Below, piece after piece: positions 37,146 to 60,527 of a DNA stretch of 64,000 nucleotides. A program made the position numbers and the translations under genes. This DNA is from Candidatus Omnitrophota bacterium. Its GTDB lineage: Bacteria; Omnitrophota; Gorgyraeia; Gygaellales; Profunditerraquicolaceae. Numbering within the stretch: the first letter of the stretch is position 1; every line of letters begins with the position of its first letter. The DNA lies in assembly GCA_026387335.1 (NCBI GenBank), contig JAPLLX010000003.1, forward strand, positions 138,230-202,229, read 5' to 3'. The notes below the pieces were generated by a model. That model was not told the DNA's origin, ran no database searches, and was given only the letters and a program-made list of their open reading frames with translations.

Positions 37146-38441
37146 CTAGCTAGCTTTTGCTCCTATATCCTTCCTATAATGCATCCCTTCAAAACTAATT
37201 TCCTTAACTGCCGCATAAGTATTATTAATTGCTTCTTTTATAGTTTTACCTAAGCCAGTTACTCCCAGGACCCTTCCGCCGCTAGTTAAATATTCTGTTT
37301 CCTGCTTCTGTCCCACATCATTTACTATCCGAGACTTAGTCCCGGCATGAAAAACTACCACATCTTTCATCTTAGCCACTTCATCCAATCCAAAAATTTC
37401 TTTATTCTTTTCATAATTTCCCGGATATCCGCCGGCGGCAGCTACAACGCAGACGCAGACGCGGCTATCCCATTCCAAATTCCTTACGCGGTTTAATTTC
37501 TGCTCAGTTGTTGCCAACATTATTTCCAGCAGATCCGATTTTAACCTGGGTAAAATCGCCTGGGTTTCCGGGTCGCCGAAACGCACATTAAACTCTAAAG
37601 TCTTTGGACCATCTTTAGTCAACATTATCCCGGCGTATAAGACTCCCCGGTAATCTATACCCTCTTTGACTAAACCGTCAATCGTGCGATAAATAACTTT
37701 ATCCAGGATTTCTTTAAATAATTCTTCTGTGACTATTGGCGCAGGTGAATATACGCCCATACCGCCGGTATTTGGGCCCTGGTCATTATCAAAAACTCTC
37801 TTATGATCCTGGGCTGAGGCTAAGGCAATTACTTCTTTGGAATCGGTGATTACTAAAATAGAGGCTTCCTGGCCCTGAAGGCACTCCTCAATTATAACTT
37901 TGTTGCCGGCAGCGCCAAAAACTTTATCCTGCATTATTGACTCAACCGCTTTTTTGGCTTCATCAACTGTTTTAGCTACCACTACACCTTTACCCGCAGC
38001 TAAACCATCGGCTTTAACTACGCAAGGGCTGCCAATCTTCTCTATATATTTCTTGGCCGCATCGGGATTATCAAAAACTTTAAATTCGGCAGTCGGCACT
38101 TTATATTTAGCCATCAGCTCTTTGGAAAAAACTTTGCTTGCTTCCATACGCGCCGCGGATTTATTCGGGCCGAATATCTTTAATTTATATTTAGCGAATT
38201 CATCAACAATTCCTAATGAAAGCGGGACTTCCGGCCCCACAACCGTTAAATCTATTTTTTCTTTTCTGGCAAAATCCAATAGTCCCGGAATATCATCAGC
38301 CTTAATATTAACGCATTCGGCGATTTGCGCGATTCCGGCATTGCCCGGCGCGCAAAATAACTTATCGCAGAGCTTGGACTGCGCAATCTTCCAGACTAGC
38401 GCATGTTCCCTGCCTCCAGATCCAATCACTAATATTTTCAT
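37146..38441 (-). CDS. purD: phosphoribosylamine--glycine ligase
   Basis: MKILVIGSGGREHAL is an ATP-grasp domain in PurD context. Confidence 0.9.
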   Translation of the reverse strand: MKILVIGSGGREHALVWKIAQSKLCDKLFCAPGNAGIAQIAECVNIKADDIPGLLDFARKEKIDLTVVGPEVPLSLGIVDEFAKYKLKIFGPNKSAARMEASKVFSKELMAKYKVPTAEFKVFDNPDAAKKYIEKIGSPCVVKADGLAAGKGVVVAKTVDEAKKAVESIMQDKVFGAAGNKVIIEECLQGQEASILVITDSKEVIALASAQDHKRVFDNDQGPNTGGMGVYSPAPIVTEELFKEILDKVIYRTIDGLVKEGIDYRGVLYAGIMLTKDGPKTLEFNVRFGDPETQAILPRLKSDLLEIMLATTEQKLNRVRNLEWDSRVCVCVVAAAGGYPGNYEKNKEIFGLDEVAKMKDVVVFHAGTKSRIVNDVGQKQETEYLTSGGRVLGVTGLGKTIKEAINNTYAAVKEISFEGMHYRKDIGAKAS

Positions 38442-38449
38442 ATTTAAAA

Positions 38450-38486
38450 GTCATTGCGAGTCCGCCATAGGCGGACGAAGCAATCC
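38450..38486. repeat. small palindromic hairpin element (copy a), immediately downstream of the cupin gene stop
   Basis: gtcattgcgag-TCCGCC-ata-GGCGGA-cgaagcaatcc. An inverted copy with compensatory stem changes lies at 40624-40659. Confidence 0.55.
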
Positions 38487-38491
38487 CTGAT

Positions 38492-38806
38492 TTAAGCCTT
38501 TATCATTACTAAAAGCATCTTAAAACGCTCTACAGCTTTTAAAGAATGCGTCTTATTCGCCGGCATAATAATTACTTCACCTGCTTTTAGGTTATGCTGC
38601 TTTCCGGCAATAGTAATTTCTGCCTTGCCGTCAAAGATATATACTAACGCGTCAAATGGCGCGGTATGTTCACTCAACCCCTGTCCCTTATCAAAGGCAA
38701 ACAAGGTCACCGTGCCCTTATCTTTCCTGATGACTTCTTTGCTGACAACAGAACCACCCTGATAATCCACCAAACTCACCAAGCTCTTCGCTTCTTCAAT
38801 ATTCAT
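38492..38806 (-). CDS. cupin-domain protein
   Basis: A 104-aa ORF with two beta-motifs (G(X)5HxH-like: GLSEHTAPFDALVYIFDGKAEI; GEVIIMPANKTHSL). Confidence 0.6.
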   Translation of the reverse strand: MNIEEAKSLVSLVDYQGGSVVSKEVIRKDKGTVTLFAFDKGQGLSEHTAPFDALVYIFDGKAEITIAGKQHNLKAGEVIIMPANKTHSLKAVERFKMLLVMIKA

Positions 38807-38842
38807 ATCTTACCTTACGCGGGGTCTGTCGAGCACACTCTT

Positions 38843-38961
38843 CGCAGGGACGCGTGATTTTTCCCAGCGTGAAAAATCACGCTCGGCTACTCGACTGCGC
38901 TCTTGCTAGTTCCTTTATAGGTGGCAAACCTTGCCCGCTCCGCCTGCGTTACGCCCTGCTC
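38843..38961. repeat. 119-bp inverted repeat, arm A of an IR pair bounding a two-gene cassette
   Basis: The reverse complement aligns to 40452-40570 at ~80% identity, including an identical 30-mer gagcagggcgtaacgcaggcggagcgggca. Compensatory substitutions preserve the inner hairpin (gtgattttt/aaaaatcac versus gcgattttcc/ggaaaatcg). Confidence 0.6.
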
Positions 38962-39007
38962 AAAGTGTGTCTCGCCACCCGCTAAAGGACAACTAAGTAT
39001 TATGTCC

Positions 39008-39724
39008 CTACAAGTCCAGTCCTCTGGAACTATTTGTTAGAAATTTATTTTTTATATCTCGAATAACGATATCATTACCTTGCATTTGTTGTGGTGATAT
39101 TTCGAATTCAAATCTTGTATCGCCATTGACAATAACAAAAGCTTTACCGCTTATTACTTGACTATTTTCAGGAATCTTTACAAACCTTACTTGAATTATA
39201 TCAGATTCTTGAAGTATTTCGATTGGTTTACCTACAGCTGAATAATTGGATTGCATGCGAAAAACTCCTATATAAATAACTTCACCTTTTCCGTTTTGTT
39301 TAGCATCTGATTGCGTATCTGACATTAACAATAGCGGTTGTCTATTTTTCACGAAACAAAGCAACCCGCCAACATCCATATATCGAGTAGATACTTTTTC
39401 GTCAGATTTTATGGTAACTTCAACTTGAGCTTCCGCAGATGCTATTGATTTCTTGAGGGGATTTTCTAGTTCTTGAATTCTTTCGGCTAGTTTTTGTAAC
39501 CTCTCCTGTTCTGAACCTGTGTATTTTTCCAAAGCAATTGTTTTGAATGGTGTTAATTGGGTTTCTAATCGTTGAATTTCGGCTATTTTATCTGAATTTT
39601 CTTTTTCCAATTTCTTAATTACCCCAAGATTTATAATTATTTGGATAATAGCTATTATTAATAAAAATACTCCTGTTACTATTGCAGTTTGAACCGAAGC
39701 CTTTTGATACCATTTCTGAGCCAT
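39008..39724 (-). CDS. hypothetical membrane-anchored coiled-coil protein (AT-rich cassette gene 1)
   Basis: A 238-aa ORF with an N-terminal TM helix, a coiled-coil and a C-terminal beta-rich domain. It has no recognisable motif, and its GC is well below the flanking genes. Confidence 0.5.
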   Translation of the reverse strand: MAQKWYQKASVQTAIVTGVFLLIIAIIQIIINLGVIKKLEKENSDKIAEIQRLETQLTPFKTIALEKYTGSEQERLQKLAERIQELENPLKKSIASAEAQVEVTIKSDEKVSTRYMDVGGLLCFVKNRQPLLLMSDTQSDAKQNGKGEVIYIGVFRMQSNYSAVGKPIEILQESDIIQVRFVKIPENSQVISGKAFVIVNGDTRFEFEISPQQMQGNDIVIRDIKNKFLTNSSRGLDL

Positions 39725-39779
39725 AGTTATTTTATTTTTTCATCGTTCTAGGACTGCTTACTTCTAACTTATAAAAACT

Positions 39780-40415
39780 TCAGTTCCTTTTTACTTTAGT
39801 GCTTTTTTCTATCCTATCAAAAGTTATAGTGTTTTCTTTGCCGTCCTTAAGAAATTTCTGTTTGTAGTTATCTTTATCATAATCCTTTTTAATATCGAGT
39901 TTTTTTCCATTGAAATAATAATGAAATCTTTTCTTAATGTGGAATGGGGCTAAAATTCCAGAACCTCTATAAGAATACTCTAAACAATAACTTTTTGGCA
40001 GCAAATCGATATACGAAGCTGGAAAAACATCACCTACCTTGTCTTTATCTAATCTACCGGTTTCTACAGTTACGGTAGCATTAGCAAAAGGAGGGAAATT
40101 ACTTGTTCCCAGCCTTACCCCGCTACTATAAAAACCACTAAGATCTTCAGAGCACTTGTGTATTTCAATAACTACATTATGAAGAGAAGTATCACTGACC
40201 TCTGAAATAAATAAATCTTTATCAATCCTAGCACCTAAAGCAACATTGTATATATCGCGACTGCCATCGTTTCTAAGAATAAAGGTAAAAGAGTTATTTT
40301 TTAAGTTTTGTTCTATCTTAAGAAAAATCCGAGGGTAAAATATCAAATCAAAAATTATACTAAGTAATATAAGTATAGAAACGCCTGCAATCATAGAAAT
40401 TAAAAAAGGCTTCAT
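39780..40415 (-). CDS. hypothetical membrane-anchored protein (AT-rich cassette gene 2)
   Basis: A 211-aa ORF with an N-terminal TM helix, no recognisable motif and low GC. Confidence 0.5.
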   Translation of the reverse strand: MKPFLISMIAGVSILILLSIIFDLIFYPRIFLKIEQNLKNNSFTFILRNDGSRDIYNVALGARIDKDLFISEVSDTSLHNVVIEIHKCSEDLSGFYSSGVRLGTSNFPPFANATVTVETGRLDKDKVGDVFPASYIDLLPKSYCLEYSYRGSGILAPFHIKKRFHYYFNGKKLDIKKDYDKDNYKQKFLKDGKENTITFDRIEKSTKVKRN

Positions 40416-51455: not shown

Positions 51456-54074
51456 TCAGCCTAAAACGATGCTTACAAGATTGAGGGAGGATTTTTGTAG
51501 GGATTTGCGGTTAATGAGGATGCGCTGAGAATCGGTTAGTGGCAAAGGCCGGGAGTTTAAAGAGGCTTTTAATATCCTGTACTGGCCATAATCCAGCTTC
51601 TTAGGATTAGAAATATTAACCTGCAGCTTTGAGCCGGCAAAGGGCCGGTTCACGCTGATTGTTGGATTCAGCTTGAATTGTTCAGCCGTTAATTTTGGTT
51701 CAATCAATAAATCACCGTTCTCCCCCCGGACGCCAAAGGCTTGCGTCACTAAAGTCAGGATAAACCAACTGGCTGAGCCGGTAAGATACGCGTACATTCC
51801 CCGGCCTTCGGCATTAAAATACTCCGGAAGACAGGGATAAATCTTGCTCTTTTTTGTATCAACGGCTAATTTATAAAGCGAACTCAAGGCCTTCCACCCT
51901 TCCTTGGCCAAACCGCGGCTGTAAAGGCTATAAGCATACATTACAACCATGTGACTAAAAATCGCGCCGTTCTCCTTATCGCCGTAAGAGAATGAAAATG
52001 CCCGGCCCAGGTTATGCTGCTCAACTTTAAAATCAGTATTCAAATGATAACCTTTTAGTTCTTTATCTAAAAGATATCTGTTTACGCTCTGGATAATCTT
52101 ATCTACCTGTTTACTATCGGCAACCCCGGACATGATCGGAAAAACCTGCGCGGCCAGGCACATCCTTAGTAAACCATTTACTTTTCCTTCTACCCGCCTC
52201 TTCTTATTATCATAATAGCCGTTAAAGAATCCCTGCTTTAACCATTCGCTTTTACGGATATGCCCTGTCAGCCACAAGGATTTTATTTTTAAGTTACGCG
52301 CCAGCGCCTCCACCTTCACTTCTTTTTTCCTCCCTGAAAGAGAGAGCGCGGCTTTAGCAAAATAAGCGTCGAGAATCTTACGTTTTTCGTTTTTGTTATT
52401 ATAATCAAAATCTTTAAGCAAGATCAGCATCTCTTCGGCGAGCCGGATTTTCTTTTTCCCGGTTTTTAATAAAAGTTCGGCGAGGCGTTTTAAATTTTGA
52501 GCGTACATCGCGCTAAAAGCTACGCTTTCGCCATACTCTTTCGCCATATCCAAACCGTCATTCCAGTCCGCGCCCTCTAGGCGAATATAGTTATGCGGCC
52601 CGACATTAAAAAACTGGCTCAGGTTCTGGATCAAAAGATGCTCATAAAGCGGGCCTTTGCCGATTTTACGCTTATTCCAATCCCGGTCAATTTTTGTGGA
52701 GCGCCAGGTATGCTGGTCGCAGAAATACGCCACTTCTGCAAACAAAATAGCTAAATCCCCGCTTTCGTTTATATAAAAATCAGTAGTTATTAACGGCCAG
52801 ACTCCGTGGTCCATCCAGACGCGGGGAATATCGTTACGGTCGGCGATAAATTCGCCCGGCTTCTTTCCTACGATCGTAGCGTTAGAACCATCAGTCCTCA
52901 CCCCCCGAAAATTATTCAGCAAGAGTGAGCGGACTTGTTTGGGGTCGCTTAAAAGTAACCCTAAACAATCCTGCCACAGGTCGCGCCAGCCGCGGCCGCC
53001 TTTGCCGTAATCAAAATCCGGTAAGAACGAACACCCGAATATTTTTCTTAAAACCGGCTGGATATTCACCCAGTTAAGCCAATTGTCAAAATCGCCATCC
53101 GCGCTCGCTGTTTTAATCGCGCGGGATTTCTCCAGCCAAAATAACTTTGTTTTCTTAAGCGCTGCCTCAATTTTGGCGTTGGTGTTAAATTTATTTAAAA
53201 GGCGGTTGATTTCCCCAGAGCTTTCAGTAATGCCCATCAGGATAATATAAGAACAACTGCTTCCGGGACGAAGGGTGATCTCCCTAAAACGCAAAGCTCC
53301 CATCGGCTCTTTACCCTGAATGTTCCTCTTATCAGGTAAAAGATCATTTAAAATTGCCTGCGGCGCCTCTAAATCCCCTCCTTCACCGCAAAACATCTCC
53401 TGTGTCGGATAAATATATTGCGGAGCACAGGCCTTACCATCAACGCCTAAAACAAAATAATTCTCTTTATTCGGTTTATGCCCTGCCTCGTCAAAAGAAA
53501 GCGTGGGTTTGGAGATGACGCCGTATTTATTTAAGGTCAGGCGCTGCAGCAAGGAAGTTACCTGGCGGTGGTCACGGATGTTATTGGCGCCTCTGGCATA
53601 AAGAGGAATAGCTGCGGTAGGAATGAATTTTATTTTCTTAGAGCTAATGTTGATAAGCTTAACCTGCATTAACTCTAGCGGCTCTTCCAGCGGAATAAAA
53701 GAAAGGGTCTCTGCCCTTAAGCCTATTTTCTTGTTTTCTCTGGTAACCTTCTGCCAGAGTAGCCCGGCTTTTAGATCAACGCGATCCTCTTTAATCAGCC
53801 TTAAATCCTTGGATACGCCGGTAGCTGACCAGGTTTTATGCGGATCAATATAAATCCAAAAGTTTCTTGAGGCCCGGGAAGTGGTCAGGTTTAGGCGTGA
53901 AACAGGTTCTAAAAGAAAGGAACTCTGTCCGGCCTTAATATCTCCGTGCAGGTCAGGGGATACCGACGACATAAGGACTGCGTTACCCAGCGGAAAATAA
54001 AGGCTTTTGTTTTTATCAGCCGAAGGAAATTCAAATGTGCCTGAATTATCAATAAAATTCCAGATTCTTTCCAT
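51456..54074 (-). CDS. GH94/GH65-superfamily glycoside phosphorylase-like protein (cellobiose-phosphorylase-like)
   Basis: An 872-aa ORF. GKGGRGWRDLWQDCLG resembles the GH94 GRGMGFRDSNQD catalytic loop. The N-terminal YFPLGN resembles the GH94 N-terminal domain. Confidence 0.5.
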   Translation of the reverse strand: MERIWNFIDNSGTFEFPSADKNKSLYFPLGNAVLMSSVSPDLHGDIKAGQSSFLLEPVSRLNLTTSRASRNFWIYIDPHKTWSATGVSKDLRLIKEDRVDLKAGLLWQKVTRENKKIGLRAETLSFIPLEEPLELMQVKLINISSKKIKFIPTAAIPLYARGANNIRDHRQVTSLLQRLTLNKYGVISKPTLSFDEAGHKPNKENYFVLGVDGKACAPQYIYPTQEMFCGEGGDLEAPQAILNDLLPDKRNIQGKEPMGALRFREITLRPGSSCSYIILMGITESSGEINRLLNKFNTNAKIEAALKKTKLFWLEKSRAIKTASADGDFDNWLNWVNIQPVLRKIFGCSFLPDFDYGKGGRGWRDLWQDCLGLLLSDPKQVRSLLLNNFRGVRTDGSNATIVGKKPGEFIADRNDIPRVWMDHGVWPLITTDFYINESGDLAILFAEVAYFCDQHTWRSTKIDRDWNKRKIGKGPLYEHLLIQNLSQFFNVGPHNYIRLEGADWNDGLDMAKEYGESVAFSAMYAQNLKRLAELLLKTGKKKIRLAEEMLILLKDFDYNNKNEKRKILDAYFAKAALSLSGRKKEVKVEALARNLKIKSLWLTGHIRKSEWLKQGFFNGYYDNKKRRVEGKVNGLLRMCLAAQVFPIMSGVADSKQVDKIIQSVNRYLLDKELKGYHLNTDFKVEQHNLGRAFSFSYGDKENGAIFSHMVVMYAYSLYSRGLAKEGWKALSSLYKLAVDTKKSKIYPCLPEYFNAEGRGMYAYLTGSASWFILTLVTQAFGVRGENGDLLIEPKLTAEQFKLNPTISVNRPFAGSKLQVNISNPKKLDYGQYRILKASLNSRPLPLTDSQRILINRKSLQKSSLNLVSIVLG

Positions 54075-54595
54075 TAAGCTGCCGGTCTCATCTTTATTTC
54101 CTGCAATGCTTGGATGACCTGGAACAATAATTGTTCGCCTTTTTTAACTAAAGGCGCCCTTTCTTTATCCATGATCGTCGGGTCATCTTTTTCCAGCGCC
54201 TCTATCGCCTTGTTATACGCCGCGATGTCGTTATCCAGCACCTCTAAGAACATCTTGCTTATAGCGCTATATTTCTCTATAGGCACGCTGGCTAAATATG
54301 CGGTCTTTACATCTTCCAGCAATTTTTTCTCAGCTGAATAATAATTGACGGCGACCGCATTGCCAAAAGCGTCTTTCTTCGGGACAAAAGTTACTACTTT
54401 GTTACGGCAAATGAGCTTGCCGCTGGTTATGTTTTTTACCCTGTCTGCCAGGCTCAACATCGTGTTTACATAAACAGCTTTCGACAGCGGCTTGGGCGCT
54501 GTAGTTACTTTCTTCTGATGAGTAAACTTTAGACCAAAGAAAACTAAACCCAAAAACACAACAACTACCACCCCGAATATCCCGATTCTCTTCAT
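54074..54595 (-). CDS. hypothetical membrane-anchored protein
   Basis: A 173-aa ORF with an N-terminal TM helix. Its stop overlaps the downstream gene start. Confidence 0.4.
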   Translation of the reverse strand: MKRIGIFGVVVVVFLGLVFFGLKFTHQKKVTTAPKPLSKAVYVNTMLSLADRVKNITSGKLICRNKVVTFVPKKDAFGNAVAVNYYSAEKKLLEDVKTAYLASVPIEKYSAISKMFLEVLDNDIAAYNKAIEALEKDDPTIMDKERAPLVKKGEQLLFQVIQALQEIKMRPAA

Positions 54596-54626
54596 ATTAT
54601 CGTCCCCTTTTCTTATTGAACCAGCC

Positions 54627-54914
54627 TTAAGAAACCTTGGGCGTATTCATAAACTCTACGCCGATTTCATACCTATCATCTTTAGTATCTTCCCTGACCC
54701 ATACAACTCTGGCAAAACCATCATAGGAGAACTCCGTTAAAGAAAACCTTATCTTTAAAATAGTCTCTTTAGGAATAAATTCATGCGTAAAGAAACTTAC
54801 CCCTCCCTGGCTGATATTCCGGGTAAGAAAAAACTGCGTTTTCGGGTTGTTGGAGATTTCGTATGCTATATTCAGGGATTGCGGTATCCGGACAAATTTC
54901 CTTCGGTCTATCAT
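54627..54914 (-). CDS. PilZ domain protein (c-di-GMP receptor)
   Basis: RRKFVRI (RxxxR) and NISQGG (NxSxxG) are present, and the length is 95 aa. Confidence 0.6.
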   Translation of the reverse strand: MIDRRKFVRIPQSLNIAYEISNNPKTQFFLTRNISQGGVSFFTHEFIPKETILKIRFSLTEFSYDGFARVVWVREDTKDDRYEIGVEFMNTPKVS

Positions 54915-55346: not shown

Positions 55347-55383
55347 TGATTTTATTATACCCCAAACAAAACTCTAAAACAAC

Positions 55384-55417
55384 AAAAAACCCGCCGGATT
55401 TCTCCAGCGGGTTTTTT
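55384..55417. terminator. bidirectional rho-independent terminator
   Basis: aaaaaacccgc-cggatttctcca-gcgggtttttt has an 11-bp stem flanked by an A-run and a T-run. It lies downstream of the minus-strand operon ending at 55573. Confidence 0.6.
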
Positions 55418-55572
55418 ACTGATTGGCCATGTTGGTATAGGTAATAATTATATCTCTTAATACTAATAAACTAATTATATAGAAAAATTATCACCTATCT
55501 TGAGGGTAACATATCCAAAAGAAAGCTATCTTCTGTGCGGCTACCTTAATGTCGTAAAGCTGAAGCAGATAT

Positions 55573-57252
55573 CTACTCTTGACTCCAACCAGAACAAATT
55601 CCTTTTGTAAAATACAGGTTTATTTTCTGGTTACCAATTTTATAGGTAGCAGTAATGACTTCTTGTGTCTTATGATTCTTCAATAAATTAACTGGTTTAT
55701 CAAAAAGGATGCTTGCTTCTTCAAAAGTTATTTGCTTTATTACATCTAGAGCATCTATTTTACCAACATACCTTTTTATTAATTCTTCTCTATTCTCTGA
55801 CGAAGGACCTGATGATTTACTCGCTTTAGAATACTGCATTATATTCTTAATGAATGTACTTACTAAACTTTCCCTTTTCTCGGTCTTCTCGTCTGGCTTG
55901 ACAAACCCTGACAAGGAAGATTCTGAATCTGTCGAAACTCTATACTGCAATATTCGTTGAAATATAATATTATCTTTGTCTTTTTGGATATCAACATCAA
56001 ACTCATATTTCAATTTATCTGCTATCCCATCATTTGACAGTTGTGAATTTCGGCCATTAATAAATCCGATACTAATCTTATGCTTTCCTGGTGGAATAAA
56101 TAGTGGATAAATAATAACATGTTCGGGTAGCAGGCTCCAATATCTTATGTCTGCTTTTGGATTTGTTATCCCACTCATAATAGCTGCCCCACCTGAGAAT
56201 AAAGCAGAAATTCCTGCTGCTGCAGCCAATGCGGCCTTTGAATACTGATCGGACGTCTGGTTAGCTTGATTCAAAAGTTGTTGAGAAAGACCAATCGCTG
56301 CTACAGAAGTATTTGCTGCGTTAGTTTTAAATTGAGCTTTCCCCTTTAGTATCGCATCCATCTTCCTTCCGCCTCTTGTGCTTGCCTGAAAATATATATC
56401 TGTATTAGAATATACTTGATTTTCTGCACTTACTTTGCCATCAATCTTTATATTCCAACCACTAATATCGTACCGATTCCCATTTATCACTGCTAATTCA
56501 CCGTATCGGCCCCTTCTTGACTTAAATGGCCCTTCGCCGAATTCAATAACTAATAAAATATTATTTTTTAGATCAAGTATTTTATTTATAAATTCATCAC
56601 TGAAACCAAGGCTAGAATAATCAGGATTATTTTCTAGTTCCTTAACTACGTTATAATAATCACTGCTTAATGATTCTTCTCCTAATTTATTAGAAATGCG
56701 CGAAACAAGCAAATAAAGTATCGCGATATCGCTTTTATATGCTTCCCCCTTTGAATCAGAATCTGCTAATATTCCATTTTTTAAGGCAGCTTTCGCATTT
56801 TCTAAGTCTCCTTTATTGTAAAGCAATAATCCTACATACAGCGAATTCATCGCTTTTTCGTATGGATCGCCTTTATAGGCCTTACTATCCTCAGAACCTG
56901 TTAAGGAAACTGCCCCGCGCTCTAGTTCTTTAAATGCAGGAATATTATTCATCAGATAATGCGCTTTTAAAAACGCGTCGAGCGCTTTATCATAATCTCC
57001 TTGGGCTAAATATATTGAACCTAATTGATTATCCCATAAGGCATAATTCCTATCCCTTAGCTTAGATGCCTCTTCATATGTTTCTGTTGCAGTCTTAAAG
57101 TTGCCAGATTGAATTTGGTAATTGTAATCACCAATTTTTTCAAAAGAATACTTGTCTACATGCGCGCAGGAAGCCAGAAGCACACTGCAGCAAATCAATG
57201 GTAAGACTTTAACTGCTTGGATAATCTTTTTGTTTTGTGGGATTAGTTTCAT
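55573..57252 (-). CDS. TPR-repeat lipoprotein
   Basis: A signal peptide with lipobox LLASC is followed by TPR-like repeats (LGSIYLAQGDYDKALDAFLKAHYL). The gene is AT-rich. Confidence 0.5.
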   Translation of the reverse strand: MKLIPQNKKIIQAVKVLPLICCSVLLASCAHVDKYSFEKIGDYNYQIQSGNFKTATETYEEASKLRDRNYALWDNQLGSIYLAQGDYDKALDAFLKAHYLMNNIPAFKELERGAVSLTGSEDSKAYKGDPYEKAMNSLYVGLLLYNKGDLENAKAALKNGILADSDSKGEAYKSDIAILYLLVSRISNKLGEESLSSDYYNVVKELENNPDYSSLGFSDEFINKILDLKNNILLVIEFGEGPFKSRRGRYGELAVINGNRYDISGWNIKIDGKVSAENQVYSNTDIYFQASTRGGRKMDAILKGKAQFKTNAANTSVAAIGLSQQLLNQANQTSDQYSKAALAAAAGISALFSGGAAIMSGITNPKADIRYWSLLPEHVIIYPLFIPPGKHKISIGFINGRNSQLSNDGIADKLKYEFDVDIQKDKDNIIFQRILQYRVSTDSESSLSGFVKPDEKTEKRESLVSTFIKNIMQYSKASKSSGPSSENREELIKRYVGKIDALDVIKQITFEEASILFDKPVNLLKNHKTQEVITATYKIGNQKINLYFTKGICSGWSQE

Positions 57253-57295
57253 TTTTAATTAAGGGAAGCGTGCTAGATCTAAACTAGGATGTGCC

Positions 57296-58294
57296 TTATC
57301 TTTCTGAAGTATTATTTCCGTAGATTCGATTCCAAAGGTTAGTTTCGGTATTCTTTTTAAGAATAACTCTCTTCGCCGAGACAATATCTCCTTCTTTAAT
57401 TAGAACTTTTATGTCCAAAGATTTAGCTAAAGATAAGCTCTTTTCTAAAACATCTACAACCTTGATCTTAGCAATCTCTGTTTGCTTATAACCAAGAACC
57501 TGGCCAGTAGTTTGATCTTTAATTGAATCTTCTAAGCGAATTACAGCAAAAACATCATTTTTTTCAATTTTATCATCAAACCCAGCATTTATATATACAC
57601 CTTTATCATCTAAACGCACCACACGACAAGTCCAAGGGTTGCCTTCTAAATCATCCGATAAAGCATGAACTGCACGTGCTAATGCCTTTTGCAAATAATC
57701 CCTCTGCCCTGTTCCGGTTGAGATTACAGCTCCTGTATTAACATCTACTAAACGCAATGTTATTGTATATTGGGTAGAGCTAAACTGTTCACCGCCATAA
57801 TTAGGTAAAATTTCTCCGAGCAAAATATATTGCACCCCATAAATATTCCCTAGCTCATTAGCGGGATCTTTTTTCACCCAATCTGATTTTTCAAATTTAA
57901 TTTCCCGAATCAATTGGTTTACCTCTTGCCGCTCCACAACTTCAAACTTATCGGTCTTTTGAAGAAGGTCGGATAACATTCCTACAACTGAGTTAACTTG
58001 CGGTACTCCGGGTTTTTCAAGATTTGGCGTAGAAATGTTAATATTATACGTTTGAGACCTGCTATCCTCTTTTTCGGCGGTTTTATTAAACGGACTCCCG
58101 GGAATATCGACTGATTCACCAAAGCTACCAATCGCTACTTTATATTTTATATTTTTTTCTTTAACCCGATTTAATTTTTCCTGAGAATATTTAAATTCTT
58201 TCTTTTCTCCTTCTCCCGCCTGAACAACCCCCCGAGTCAAAAATCCAAATACAAAAAATAAAGTAAATAAACTAAAAAACAACTTTTTTTTCAT
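57296..58294 (-). CDS. CsgG-family (curli-secretion-channel-like) protein
   Basis: A signal peptide is followed by MLSDLLQKTDKFEVVERQEVNQLIREIKF, which matches the CsgG core AMLVTALKDSRWFIPLERQGLQNLLNERK. YILLGEI matches IMVEGSI. Confidence 0.55.
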   Translation of the reverse strand: MKKKLFFSLFTLFFVFGFLTRGVVQAGEGEKKEFKYSQEKLNRVKEKNIKYKVAIGSFGESVDIPGSPFNKTAEKEDSRSQTYNINISTPNLEKPGVPQVNSVVGMLSDLLQKTDKFEVVERQEVNQLIREIKFEKSDWVKKDPANELGNIYGVQYILLGEILPNYGGEQFSSTQYTITLRLVDVNTGAVISTGTGQRDYLQKALARAVHALSDDLEGNPWTCRVVRLDDKGVYINAGFDDKIEKNDVFAVIRLEDSIKDQTTGQVLGYKQTEIAKIKVVDVLEKSLSLAKSLDIKVLIKEGDIVSAKRVILKKNTETNLWNRIYGNNTSER

Positions 58295-58313
58295 CGTTTA
58301 CTCCTTATGTTCT

Positions 58314-58742
58314 TTACTGGGCTTTACGAATACGAATCGTGTAATCCTTGGCCTTAGAATTAAAAGCAGTTGTTTTATATGCGTACGTAGAATACTGAGG
58401 AATCAAGATAAGCTCCCAATTAGTATCGTCACCTATCTGAAAACCTTTGTCGTCGCGAAAAATAGTTTGAACTTGCAATCTTAATAACTCTTTTTTCATA
58501 TTGCGTATCTCGCAATATACTTTTAGCCGATTATCATCGGTTAAGTCAGTTTTCTGAGCTAAAATGACAACTCGCTTTTGAGAAAACTGATTGTCCAGAT
58601 CCTTATCGAGAATAACTACTTTCAGATTCCGTTCCTTATCCTGATTAACACTATAGGGAATAGTATGATAAGGACCAGCGGCGCAACCATTTAGAATAAA
58701 AATTCCAACTGCTATAAAAAATATAGAAGAAAGTTTTGACAT
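58314..58742 (-). CDS. small lipoprotein (possibly DUF4810-like partner of CsgG-family proteins)
   Basis: A signal peptide with lipobox LNGC begins a 142-aa ORF. The family assignment is by operon context only. Confidence 0.4.
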   Translation of the reverse strand: MSKLSSIFFIAVGIFILNGCAAGPYHTIPYSVNQDKERNLKVVILDKDLDNQFSQKRVVILAQKTDLTDDNRLKVYCEIRNMKKELLRLQVQTIFRDDKGFQIGDDTNWELILIPQYSTYAYKTTAFNSKAKDYTIRIRKAQ

Positions 58743-58765
58743 ATTTATCTCCTTATCGTTTAAGT

Positions 58766-59362
58766 TTATTGATAGGCAACCCCTGATTCACCAACTCGTT
58801 TTATCTCATAAGAATCTTCCCAAATAATATCGCTAGTTTCCGCATCAATTAATTGAAAAGCCATTAAGACATAATCTGACCGGTTGTTGCTAACTGCCTT
58901 TGATAATCCAGTTAATTCTCCAGTCAAATAAAAATCAACTCCGTAAAGATCGCCCTCCTTACTAGCTGTTACTAAATTCTTTCTTTTAGCTTCACGTTCC
59001 TTAAGGATATCATCTATTCGGTCGCGGGCAAGAAATCGTACCTTTCCGGTAGCATTTTTATTAAGTTCCATTCGAATCTTTTGAGTAAAAATATCTTTAT
59101 TAATTATAAATCGTGTACTGTTCTTAACCGGTAGAAGGGCGATTCGAGGAGTTCCTTGAGCATTCATAATCTCGGGAACCTCTAAGATAGAAATGGCCAT
59201 CTTCCGGGCAACCGTTAGTAAGTCTGTCGATTCAATACCAGTCCCACCTAAATTATCATCATTATCAGGGAGGATCACATTTGAGTGCGAAACCGGAACA
59301 CTAGCACATGATGATAATGTTATTGTAAATAAAATCAATACTAACAATTTAAAATGTTTCAT
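58766..59362 (-). CDS. lipoprotein (possibly DUF799-like partner of CsgG-family proteins)
   Basis: MKHFKLLVLILFTITLSSC has the lipobox LSSC. The protein is ~200 aa, and the family assignment is by context only. The track ORF extends to 59398. Confidence 0.4.
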   Translation of the reverse strand: MKHFKLLVLILFTITLSSCASVPVSHSNVILPDNDDNLGGTGIESTDLLTVARKMAISILEVPEIMNAQGTPRIALLPVKNSTRFIINKDIFTQKIRMELNKNATGKVRFLARDRIDDILKEREAKRKNLVTASKEGDLYGVDFYLTGELTGLSKAVSNNRSDYVLMAFQLIDAETSDIIWEDSYEIKRVGESGVAYQ

Positions 59363-59425
59363 TTCTCTCCCCTTTCGTCTCAAGATGACTTTTAACATAG
59401 ATTTATCTATTTTTGGAACAAAAAA

Positions 59426-59449
59426 ACAATTCCCTCTATAGAGAATTGT
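59426..59449. promoter_or_regulatory. 24-bp near-perfect palindrome (candidate operator) upstream of the lipoprotein operon promoter
   Basis: ACAATTC-cc-TCTATAGA-GAATTGT matches its reverse complement at 22 of 24 positions. It lies ~30 bp upstream of a sigma70-like -35/-10 (TTGTTC-16-TATGTT) and the SD AAAGGGGAGAG. Confidence 0.35.
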
Positions 59450-59549
59450 CTATAAAATTACATATCTAATTCTATTGCCACTTCCTTGTGACATAGATTG
59501 ATTATACACTCCATAGGCTTATATTCAACATTTATTCCCTATTTTGCGT

Positions 59550-59577
59550 ACCGCCGGATTTCTAAAAGCGGTTTTTT
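59550..59577. repeat. terminator-like hairpin sharing a 13-nt core (ccgccggatttct) with the terminator at 55384-55417
   Basis: accgc-cggatttctaaaa-gcggtttttt. A direct repeat of the loop core and G/C stem lies at 55391-55403. Confidence 0.45.
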
Positions 59578-59610
59578 AATTATGGAAAATAATTATCCAA
59601 CTTGTTACAG

Positions 59611-60375
59611 CTATTTCTTATATCGCAAAGAGCCTATTTGAGAAAAGAATTTTCCTGCATCAATTTTATTTATATTTAAATATACAGAATGATCTGGATA
59701 GTAATTTCTTATTGGGGTAATATGGCTTGGCACGAATTCACTAAGCATTCTCTTAAGCTGGATTATGCCTTTTCTATTAACGGACCTAACCCTAATCATG
59801 CCCCTAGCATTAAAACAAGCCTCATCATCAAAAAACGCCTTAATCCAATTCTTTTTTACTTCTTTTTTTGCTTTCATAATTTTTGGAGAAATAAACCATT
59901 CCCTGGATTTGCCACCTCCCAGATCCTTCATTAACCGCCACACATCCTTTGATTTAACTGTTACGCAGTTATTTCTAAAATATGGTTTTAATCCGAAGGT
60001 CGACTTTGAATCTCTTATAAATTCCCTGATTAAACGTTGATTAAAATTGGTATATTGCACTCCAAATCTAAAACGATAACTGTTAGGTTTATAGATTCCC
60101 ATGTAACCATATGCGTCTTTTTCTCGTCTCTGGAATAAATTACCGTCTCCGCAAACGTGCGCATGCACCCTTGCTAATGCAGAAGTAATCTTTCGCGGTA
60201 TTTTAATTTTGGGGAGGGATCTGTTTCTTTTAAACTTCTTTGATAGGTGCTGATTTACAGAACCAGGAGTTCTAGCTAAAATTTTACAAATCTTCAATAT
60301 TGAAAGCTTCTTATCAAAATAAAGATTTTTTAACCTTTTATCTTCTTTTTTGCTCCATTTTTTAATATTTCGCAT
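59611..60375 (-). CDS. Myb/SANT-like HTH plus LAGLIDADG-like double-motif protein (putative homing-endonuclease-family DNA-binding protein)
   Basis: The N-terminal WSKKEDKRLKNLY...ILARTPGSVNQHL is Myb/SANT-like. LARVHAHVCGDGNLF and IKAFFDDEACF resemble the two LAGLIDADG motifs. The gene is AT-rich and lies immediately upstream of tRNA-fMet. Confidence 0.4.
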   Translation of the reverse strand: MRNIKKWSKKEDKRLKNLYFDKKLSILKICKILARTPGSVNQHLSKKFKRNRSLPKIKIPRKITSALARVHAHVCGDGNLFQRREKDAYGYMGIYKPNSYRFRFGVQYTNFNQRLIREFIRDSKSTFGLKPYFRNNCVTVKSKDVWRLMKDLGGGKSREWFISPKIMKAKKEVKKNWIKAFFDDEACFNARGMIRVRSVNRKGIIQLKRMLSEFVPSHITPIRNYYPDHSVYLNINKIDAGKFFSQIGSLRYKK

Positions 60376-60396
60376 AATCTATTGAAATATAAAAAA

Positions 60397-60470
60397 TTGC
60401 GGGGGACCGATTTGGACGGTCGACCTCAAGGTTATGAGCCTTGCGAGCTACCAGGCTGCTCCACCCCGCG
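60397..60470 (-). tRNA. tRNA-Met (CAT), initiator type; no encoded CCA
   Basis: The reverse complement is CGCGGGGTGGAGCAGCCTGGTAGCTCGCAAGGCTCATAACCTTGAGGTCGACCGTCCAAATCGGTCCCCCGCAA. Its D-arm is identical to E. coli tRNA-fMet. C1:A72 is mismatched and the anticodon is CAT. Confidence 0.85.
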
Positions 60471-60527
60471 AAACTTTTTAAAGAACAATTATATTATAAC
60501 ACAATAAGATGCGTGAATAGCCGATAT

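Follow-up and report, generated by a model that had tools for sequence, protein, structure and literature searches.

An AT-rich block beside the initiator tRNA gene of an Omnitrophota bacterium: a probable composite of a long-standing LAGLIDADG gene and an inserted cassette with a putative envelope role

Did the AT-rich block of about 5 kb next to the initiator transfer RNA gene (tRNA-fMet) of Candidatus Omnitrophota bacterium arrive as a single island, and does it encode a secretion pore? These questions are raised by positions 55420-60396 of a 64,000-nucleotide (nt) stretch of contig JAPLLX010000003.1, hereafter the window, in which an earlier note had seen a horizontally acquired island with a CsgG-like channel operon and a LAGLIDADG-like protein. 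Our comparison of the window with loci from other genomes (designated by L-numbers such as L001, L010 and L092) suggests another answer. The block is probably a composite of two independent elements, an ancestral endonuclease-like gene and a later-inserted cassette with a presumed role in the cell envelope. The compositional description itself was borne out, since the guanine-plus-cytosine content (GC) falls to 0.347 over the block against 0.440 in the rest of the window; among sliding 5-kb windows this is the lowest-GC 5 kb, about 3.5 standard deviations under the mean. The block is deviant in codon composition as well, GC at third codon positions being 0.27-0.31 in its five genes and 0.44-0.53 in the flanking genes. 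Each of the five genes has a GC within 0.33-0.37, and all lie on the minus strand. The positions proposed for the genes and for tRNA-fMet also held (open reading frames (ORFs), ARAGORN and Rfam), and the left boundary of the block is a symmetrical terminator hairpin (inverted repeat I5, ~55377-55424).

The division of the block into two elements is suggested by its closest relatives. L092, the nearest of them (90% amino-acid (aa) identity; 87% nucleotide identity over 2.1 kb), carries on its short contig the enolase-DivIC-tRNA-LAGLIDADG portion of the shared gene order; beyond it, one terminator hairpin alone separates the LAGLIDADG stop codon from the yjbQ promoter, with no cassette. In a three-way alignment both junctions of the window map onto this single L092 hairpin, and each window copy keeps the flank of its own side. 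The two copies form direct repeat D2, with 79% identity over 33 nt and a 13-nt exact core. Since L092 has one hairpin and the window two, the 4.1-kb cassette would have been inserted into the terminator hairpin between the endonuclease gene and yjbQ, duplicating about 27 nt. Within the LAGLIDADG-to-yjbQ interval, the cassette is the only part without a counterpart in L010 or L092. L010, whose LAGLIDADG protein is 83% identical, has the order FtsH-enolase-DivIC-tRNA-LAGLIDADG-(1413-aa ORF)-yjbQ-PilZ-GH94-ADSL, which is that of the window save for the content of the slot and a window-only 173-aa ORF between PilZ and GH94. Elsewhere the slot holds a cellulase gene (L011), or ADSL follows the LAGLIDADG gene directly (L095).

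The LAGLIDADG gene, by contrast with the cassette, appears to be ancestral at the locus, a long-standing companion of the initiator tRNA across Omnitrophota and some genomes labelled as candidate phyla radiation (CPR). It lies directly 3' of tRNA-fMet in 16/16 loci where a full-length homolog is present and the region upstream can be seen, at a distance of ~20-25 nt from the tRNA 3' end in the window and its nearest relatives, and the order FtsH-enolase-DivIC-tRNA-LAGLIDADG recurs in L010, L011, L095 and L096. Its GC is 0.32-0.35 where the flanks have 0.40-0.44; because the gene is AT-rich in every host, its composition would be a property of the gene itself rather than evidence that it arrived recently. 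Its divergence tracks that of the flanking genes, and a ratio of nonsynonymous to synonymous divergence (dN/dS) of ~0.11-0.13 indicates purifying selection on a protein that is still functional. The earlier note had proposed that genes held by relatives at the same locus be regarded as ancestral; by this standard the LAGLIDADG gene is ancestral, whereas the cassette is absent from L092 and L010.

The 254-aa product seems to be a genuine two-motif LAGLIDADG protein, as had been proposed together with a Myb/SANT-like part. In 25 aligned homologs the motifs LARVHAHVCGDG and AFFDDEA vary little or not at all; HAHVCGDG and AFFDDEA, a pair of motifs as in the single-chain type, align with the motifs of intein endonucleases. 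A search of the family profile against the PDB likewise returned intein endonuclease domains (7qsu, E 5e-5; PI-PfuI, E 1e-3). The window protein scores 19.4 bits with the Pfam LAGLIDADG model (cutoff 22.5), and 18/25 family members match Pfam LAGLIDADG_3 at E <= 0.1 (best 3.4e-13). Weak matches to helix-turn-helix/Myb models came from the N-terminus. The neighbouring tRNA-Met(CAT) shows, on inspection of its sequence, the C1/A72 mismatch expected of an initiator. A whole-window Rfam scan at the gathering threshold gave zero matches and missed even this tRNA, so that whole-window Rfam negatives need caution; a sub-region scan found the tRNA and no other family. The 20 nt that separate the tRNA from the LAGLIDADG ORF contain no promoter consensus or terminator, and the promoter upstream of the tRNA likely drives a tRNA-LAGLIDADG co-transcript. 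The protein was not found in viral collections. Archaeal relatives of the domain are common; they are 26-40% identical, lack the N-terminal helix-turn-helix, and often lie directly beside tRNA genes for Met, Pro or Tyr (L047 3906-4570, L049 474-1139, L028 7827-8489, L032 7648-8648, L021 2983-3682). The association of this domain with tRNA genes may be older and broader than Omnitrophota.

The cassette, on the other hand, recurs in unrelated surroundings. The same four genes are present in L001, L003, L006, L007 and L009, and in a rearranged form in L004, with unrelated flanks in every case. Its GC is 0.345-0.374 in all hosts, the host flanks having 0.37-0.48. The window copy is 86-88% identical at the nucleotide level to those of L001, L006, L007 and L009, over a span (55584-59545) that includes the promoter, the leader and the genes. 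Between the window and L007, synonymous divergence (dS) is 0.41-0.64 for the cassette and ranges from 1.9 to saturation for the housekeeping genes rpiB, SHMT, dCMP deaminase and NrdR. Against the syntenic L010, the flanking genes have a dS of 0.9-1.55 and the AT-rich LAGLIDADG gene one of 0.92. The cassette is thus less diverged from the more distant L007 than the LAGLIDADG gene is from the closer L010. These data argue for a horizontal exchange of the four-gene cassette among Omnitrophota lineages.

Three other copies of the cassette lie downstream of tRNA genes (L001 8687-8760, L004 5836-5909, L006 8709-8780). It is at most ~170 nt from tRNA-Gln in L001 and from tRNA-Phe in L006, and ~850 nt past tRNA-Gln in L004, where the gene for the tetratricopeptide repeat (TPR) protein comes first. 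The gltX/tRNA-Gln position recurs in the mutually distant L001 and L004 and may be an older location. The left end of the window cassette, AGGGAATAAATG, is faintly like the 3' end and spacer of the L001 tRNA-Gln.

At its other end the window cassette carries the truncated copy of a ~210-nt dispersed repeat, the sole copy in the window. According to nhmmer, this repeat has four copies in L004, two each in L001 and L009, and a single partial one in the window; L010 and L011 have none. It consists of a GTGACA-type hairpin and a promoter-like core (TTGATA-17-TATAAT), followed by a conserved transcribed stretch, and is usually found 100-200 nt upstream of a gene. In other genomes it follows the cassette; in L009 it stands on both sides and replaces the cassette's own promoter. 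The remnant fits an import of the cassette from a genome of the L001/L004/L009 type.

What the cassette encodes is listed in Table 1. The earlier note had described a minus-strand operon for a TPR lipoprotein, two small lipoproteins and a CsgG-like member. This list largely stands, except that the last has no lipobox, giving three predicted lipoproteins and one soluble periplasmic protein. The DUF4810 and DUF799 partners that had been suggested found no match in the Pfam scan, the actual partners being LpoB-like and YcfL-like. The LpoB-like ORF spans 58766-59398; its true start is likely the second ATG, at 59362, which gives 198 aa as in the homologs. This protein matches Pfam PF13036 with 72.4 bits over the whole profile (1-147/147) and misses the LpoB equivalog cutoff (NCBIfam TIGR02722, 67.1 vs 110.55 bits), which points to a member of the family, though not necessarily to a functional equivalent. 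The 142-aa protein passes the PF07233 gathering cutoff (31.3 vs 28.3 bits). Searched against the PDB by sequence, these two lipoproteins gave nothing useful, and no solved homolog of the 142-aa protein was found. In the 559-aa protein, Pfam TPR matches are restricted to residues 47-103. The operon leader (59363-59496, minus strand) matches no Rfam family and contains a hairpin ~45 nt ahead of the ribosome-binding site that is conserved in five loci, with one compensatory pair in L003 and a leader folding z of -3.5; it is a candidate attenuator or riboregulator. A PHROGs scan gave no informative matches, and in the part of the literature that was searched we found no description of the four-gene operon.

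Table 1. Predicted features of the block and of compared loci (positions refer to the window unless a locus is named)
Feature	Positions	Strand	Basis or remark
Putatively inserted 4.1-kb cassette: promoter, leader, four genes, dispersed-repeat remnant	55424-59550	-	no counterpart in L010, L092
Cassette sigma-70-like promoter	59501-59528	-	TTGAAT-16-TATAAT, 10/12 matches; conserved in L001, L007
Terminator-like hairpin and U-run in 5' leader, candidate attenuator	59414-59451	-	terminator scan
LpoB-family outer-membrane lipoprotein, 198 aa	58766-59362	-	Pfam LpoB, lipobox LSSC
DUF1425/YcfL-family small lipoprotein, 142 aa	58314-58742	-	PF07233, lipobox-like LNGC
Secreted two-domain CsgG/FlgT-like protein, 332 aa	57296-58294	-	Pfam, Foldseek, hhalign
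Lipoprotein, N-terminal TPR and large uncharacterised C-terminal part, 559 aa	55573-57252	-	lipobox LASC
Truncated copy of ~210-nt dispersed repeat	55424-55487	-	nhmmer; sole copy in window
Left hairpin copy, LAGLIDADG/cassette junction, T-run lost	59551-59583	.	direct repeat D2
Right hairpin copy, T-run intact, then yjbQ promoter	55384-55423 (repeat copy 55391-55423)	.	I5, D2
Free-standing LAGLIDADG homing-endonuclease-like gene, 254 aa, N-terminal helix-turn-helix	59611-60375	-	motifs, profiles, synteny
Initiator tRNA-Met(CAT)	60396-60471	-	ARAGORN; Rfam tRNA 53.7 bits; intron-less; 3' end faces block
Sigma-70-like promoter upstream of tRNA	60488-60517	-	TTCACG-18-TATAAT, 10/12 consensus matches
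tRNA-fMet group I introns	L010 9707-9901; L012 9686-9896; L014 7717-7919; L016 7646-7841		Rfam
tRNA-fMet group I introns	L017 1725-1913; L018 7741-7927; L044 3927-4120; L095 7636-7854		Rfam
~210-nt repeat copies	L001 12719-12924, 20761-20893; L009 8658-8880, 12718-12928		
~210-nt repeat copies	L004 8392-8607, 13706-13912, 14969-15129, 17792-17898		

Is the 332-aa protein a CsgG-type pore? Its membership of the CsgG family, as proposed in the earlier note, is supported by Pfam: CsgG (PF03783) is matched with 47.7 bits, well over the gathering cutoff of 20.8, and by 15/15 family members. The match covers profile positions 39-156/210 only and overlaps a match to LpoB. The family has 61 database matches, nearly all from metagenomes and metagenome-assembled genomes (MAGs) of Omnitrophota type, and the nearest proteins come from Candidatus Omnitrophica/Omnitrophota MAGs, one of them being 100% identical. 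The N-terminus (MKKKLFFSLFTLFFVFGFLTRGVVQA, then GEGE) is a signal peptide without a lipobox cysteine, and the close orthologs of 330-332 aa likewise have no lipobox at the N-terminus; in several of the more distant orthologs a cysteine lies near the end of the signal sequence. FlgT_C is found by Pfam in 8/15 and FlgT_M in 6/15 family members, and the C-terminal domain also resembles the FlgT-like domains of TsaP. Foldseek placed FlgT first (E ~5e-10 over ~310 columns), then CsgG (4e-5), then TolB, PelC and LpoB, a result that serves as ranking evidence only, the AlphaFold2 model being of low confidence (predicted local distance difference test, pLDDT, 56.6; TM-scores ~0.25). The predicted secondary structure has the beta-alpha-beta core common to LpoB, the N-terminal domain of TolB (TolB-N), PelC, FlgT and CsgG and, after it, a domain rich in beta structure. 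With E. coli CsgG (in a sequence that agrees with the fragments in the PDB profile alignment), hhalign aligned residues 101-242 to CsgG 77-250 at 80% probability. The protein is ~30 residues short there, the gaps coinciding with the membrane hairpins TM1 and TM2 of CsgG, and the low-confidence model shows a short hairpin and a helix in the equivalent regions. In the PDB profile search CsgG was aligned in two short blocks only; this search used an alignment trimmed of the protease domain described below, the untrimmed one being dominated by HtrA matches. No CsgE, CsgF or curlin gene was detected by Pfam among the operon neighbours. The missing lipobox, the missing curli partners and the short hairpin regions together make a CsgG-type barrel unlikely. 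The protein may instead be a non-lipidated secreted one, with a CsgG/LpoB/TolB-N-like domain and a FlgT_C-like beta domain, and without the barrel hairpins.

Orthologs that are 40-67% identical are ~533 aa long, with an HtrA-like serine protease, lacking PDZ domains, as their C-terminal domain; in the window's lineage the 332-aa protein has lost it. Such more distant orthologs are found at L004 10001-11602 and among proteins P0027-P0058; in L004 a TPR gene lies ahead of the operon and a gene for a YajG-like lipoprotein after it.

The other members of the cassette belong to a wider set of gene neighbourhoods. The TPR-protein family comprises 753 cluster representatives at E <= 1e-30, mostly of 400-470 aa. 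In a Planctomycetes MAG the TPR-family gene is flanked by LpoB and DUF1425 genes, and in a Magnetospirillum MAG an LpoB gene comes before it. The pairing of LpoB with a TPR lipoprotein is thus present in at least three phyla, with DUF1425 added in Omnitrophota and in the Planctomycetes MAG. Cj0090 of Campylobacter jejuni is presumably a DUF1425 member as well. It is encoded in the cj0089-cj0090-cj0091 lipoprotein operon (PMC3100323), and for the Helicobacter proteins HP0018/HP1457 an envelope phenotype or maintenance role and an interaction with the peptidoglycan hydrolases MltD/AmiA have been described (PMC11394524). Proteins of both genera are linked to envelope maintenance and adherence (PMC11394524, PMC3100323). 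Their operons share with the cassette outer-membrane lipoproteins that include the LpoB family and a ~420-560-aa lipoprotein with N-terminal TPR. The Omnitrophota form differs in having a fourth gene, for the CsgG/FlgT-fold secreted protein that is HtrA-fused in some lineages, and in its behaviour as an AT-rich, mobile cassette that brings its own promoter. Most likely, then, the cassette encodes an outer-membrane-anchored periplasmic envelope complex. The four products would assemble into such a complex for envelope or peptidoglycan maintenance, with which Omnitrophota would have elaborated the widespread module of LpoB, YcfL and TPR lipoprotein. In it, the FlgT/CsgG-fold subunit would be a periplasmic scaffold or ring and not a transmembrane CsgG-type pore, and in more distant orthologs it would tether the HtrA-type protease.

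The other element of the block raises the question of what an endonuclease-like protein does beside the initiator tRNA. In eight relatives tRNA-fMet is split by a group I intron (Rfam 52-84 bits, gathering cutoff 50), and L015 has the same split appearance by eye. The tRNA-fMet is intron-less in 7/16 loci, the window and L092 among them. By inspection, the intron lies in the anticodon loop; in the Omnitrophota type it separates U33 from C34, and in the two CPR-labelled loci it follows the anticodon. Its presence alternates among close relatives, being absent from the window and L092 and present in L010, and the insertion-site sequence of the window's intron-less tRNA is identical to the spliced exon junction of L010. 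Since the intron is too short for an ORF and the LAGLIDADG ORF begins past the tRNA 3' end, the endonuclease gene is free-standing.

Such an arrangement resembles the collaborative or trans homing described for phages, in which a free-standing endonuclease is associated with a group I intron that has no ORF (PMC3984707). Here the hosts would be cellular bacteria, the target tRNA-fMet and the enzyme of LAGLIDADG type. Moreover, intron-less genomes with an unchanged insertion site still retain the endonuclease gene, which the simple model does not predict. The ORF-less group I intron in an adjacent target that collaborative homing calls for is absent from the window's tRNA-fMet, and the unchanged insertion site argues, indirectly, against its cleavage by the endonuclease. 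A cyanobacterial tRNA-fMet group I intron encodes I-Ssp6803I, according to the citation of Bonocora & Shub 2001 in PMC3984707. In both systems the anticodon loop of an initiator tRNA hosts a group I intron, and a homing endonuclease goes with it; the cyanobacterial endonuclease is encoded within the intron, while the ORF described here stands outside a tRNA gene that, in the window, has no intron. I-Ssp6803I is reportedly of an enzyme family different from LAGLIDADG. In the part of the literature that was searched, we found no work joining Omnitrophota tRNA-fMet introns with an adjoining LAGLIDADG gene.

Several points weigh against the view that the block combines an ancestral gene with a transferred envelope cassette. 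AT-rich genes give a lower apparent dS (between the window and L092, 0.37 for the LAGLIDADG gene against 0.97 for enolase), so that the contrast between cassette and housekeeping genes is smaller than the raw numbers suggest, and the direct divergence comparison comes from one pair, the window and L007. No recombinase, transposase or phage vehicle that would account for the transfer was found; cassette proteins were on no contig of the viral collections, which leaves a phage vehicle unsupported, and a 27-nt duplication is atypical of known transposition. The cassette could also have been deleted in the L092 lineage by recombination between the hairpin copies. On the functional side, the role of the complex is deduced only from family membership and gene neighbourhood, the TPR protein is likened to Cj0089/HP0018 by operon make-up (the family cluster names are uninformative), and the FlgT-like architecture comes mainly from sequence profiles, given the low confidence of the model. 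Some of these points would suit a cassette that was ancestral at the slot, was lost from L092 and replaced in L010 and L011, and owed its AT-richness and conservation to selection and not to transfer: deletion between the 27-nt direct repeats would recreate the exact single-hairpin site of L092, AT-rich genes generally show depressed dS, and the operon is conserved over much of the phylum. We nevertheless regard such a history as quite improbable. Unrelated genes flank the cassette in six other genomes, and the position shared by L001 and L004 looks older; the hairpin duplication itself points to insertion at some time; the repeat remnant is foreign to the window's 64 kb, L010 and L011; and the cassette dS against L007 is well under that of the AT-rich control against the closer L010. 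It is harder still to believe that the entire 5-kb block is one classic island, integrated at the tRNA-fMet 3' end with the LAGLIDADG gene as cargo, even though it adjoins the tRNA 3' end, is AT-rich throughout and has cassette copies that come after tRNA-Gln or tRNA-Phe genes in L001, L004 and L006. All 16 related loci, cassette-free genomes included, have the LAGLIDADG gene at this same place, and it remains at the empty site of L092, which contradicts such an island; homology to relatives is broken only over 55390-59620. Pfam and PHROGs scans found no integrase or transposase domain in the block, a search of the far boundary for an att-like repeat of the tRNA 3' end found none, and what was duplicated is a terminator hairpin, ~850 nt away from the tRNA, and not tRNA-derived sequence. 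The claim of a classic tRNA-targeting island therefore fails. That of horizontal acquisition holds for the four-gene operon, in view of the empty site, the other slot contents, the other loci and the low dS, and not for the LAGLIDADG gene.

With the composite origin preferred, the alternatives for the gene products can be weighed in the same way. A true CsgG-type oligomeric outer-membrane channel, with the lipoproteins as accessories, has in its favour the Pfam score and its recurrence throughout the family, the CsgG chains in the Foldseek list and the hhalign probability. We consider it very unlikely, because the CsgG match is confined to the periplasmic alpha/beta core, whose fold is also found in the non-pore proteins LpoB, TolB-N, PelC and FlgT, and because the lipidation site, the TM hairpins (the TM2-equivalent region is predicted helical) and the CsgE/F/A/B partners of E. 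coli CsgG are missing, whereas a FlgT_C-like domain is added. Thus, CsgG-family membership is retained from the earlier note and the secretion pore is not. FlgT of the Vibrio flagellar H-ring, the best structural match over both domains, is likewise secreted and non-lipidated; the likeness to FlgT/PelC-type periplasmic ring proteins is drawn from a low-confidence model, and no flagellar or Pel genes are nearby. For the LAGLIDADG protein, a domesticated host factor that is vertically kept (for example a regulator that binds DNA, or an RNA maturase serving the tRNA-fMet locus) is a possibility that we hold open with some doubt. The long-lasting synteny and purifying selection, the additional N-terminal helix-turn-helix, and the retention of the gene in seven intron-less genomes whose insertion site equals the exon junction of intron-bearing relatives speak for it. 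However, the acidic motif residues are kept (D77 in at least 90% of homologs, D184/E185 in 25/25), the alternating presence of the intron among close relatives is the pattern expected from ongoing mobility, and many homologs lie on ~1-kb contigs, suggesting population-level variation around the gene. Another idea, which we regard as unlikely and offer tentatively, is that the gene and the tRNA-fMet intron form a collaborative/trans homing pair, or that the gene is an intron-less homing element targeting the tRNA-fMet 3' flank. Repeated double-strand breaks and their repair would then make the downstream slot a recombination hot spot that captures lineage-specific cargo, including the envelope cassette.

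Two further features of the window were noted outside the block. A second, milder GC dip lies at 38001-40000 (0.383 over 2 kb). The 173-aa ORF between PilZ and GH94 (54074-54595) has an N-terminal hydrophobic segment and no Pfam match; the 575 nt that hold it (54072-54646) are absent from the otherwise collinear L010, a second small indel near the block.

To conclude, the Pfam CsgG match in this cassette would mark a periplasmic fold common to LpoB, FlgT and PelC, and not a secretion pore. The poorly understood LpoB, YcfL and TPR module may thus have an expanded form in an uncultured phylum, in which a fourth subunit is added, at times joined to a protease. The pair of empty and filled sites, with its 27-nt hairpin duplication and a cassette without recombinase, gives a concrete handle on the mechanism of insertion. 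If the tentative homing idea were true, a homing pair, whose endonuclease has relatives beside archaeal tRNA genes, would operate in cellular bacteria across both Omnitrophota and CPR lineages. The locus might in any case offer a natural system for studying the co-evolution of free-standing endonucleases with introns, or their domestication, in cellular genomes, and not in phages or organelles. The entry of a recombinase-less cassette into a terminator hairpin and the role of a tRNA-linked LAGLIDADG protein in intron-less genomes are both worth following.

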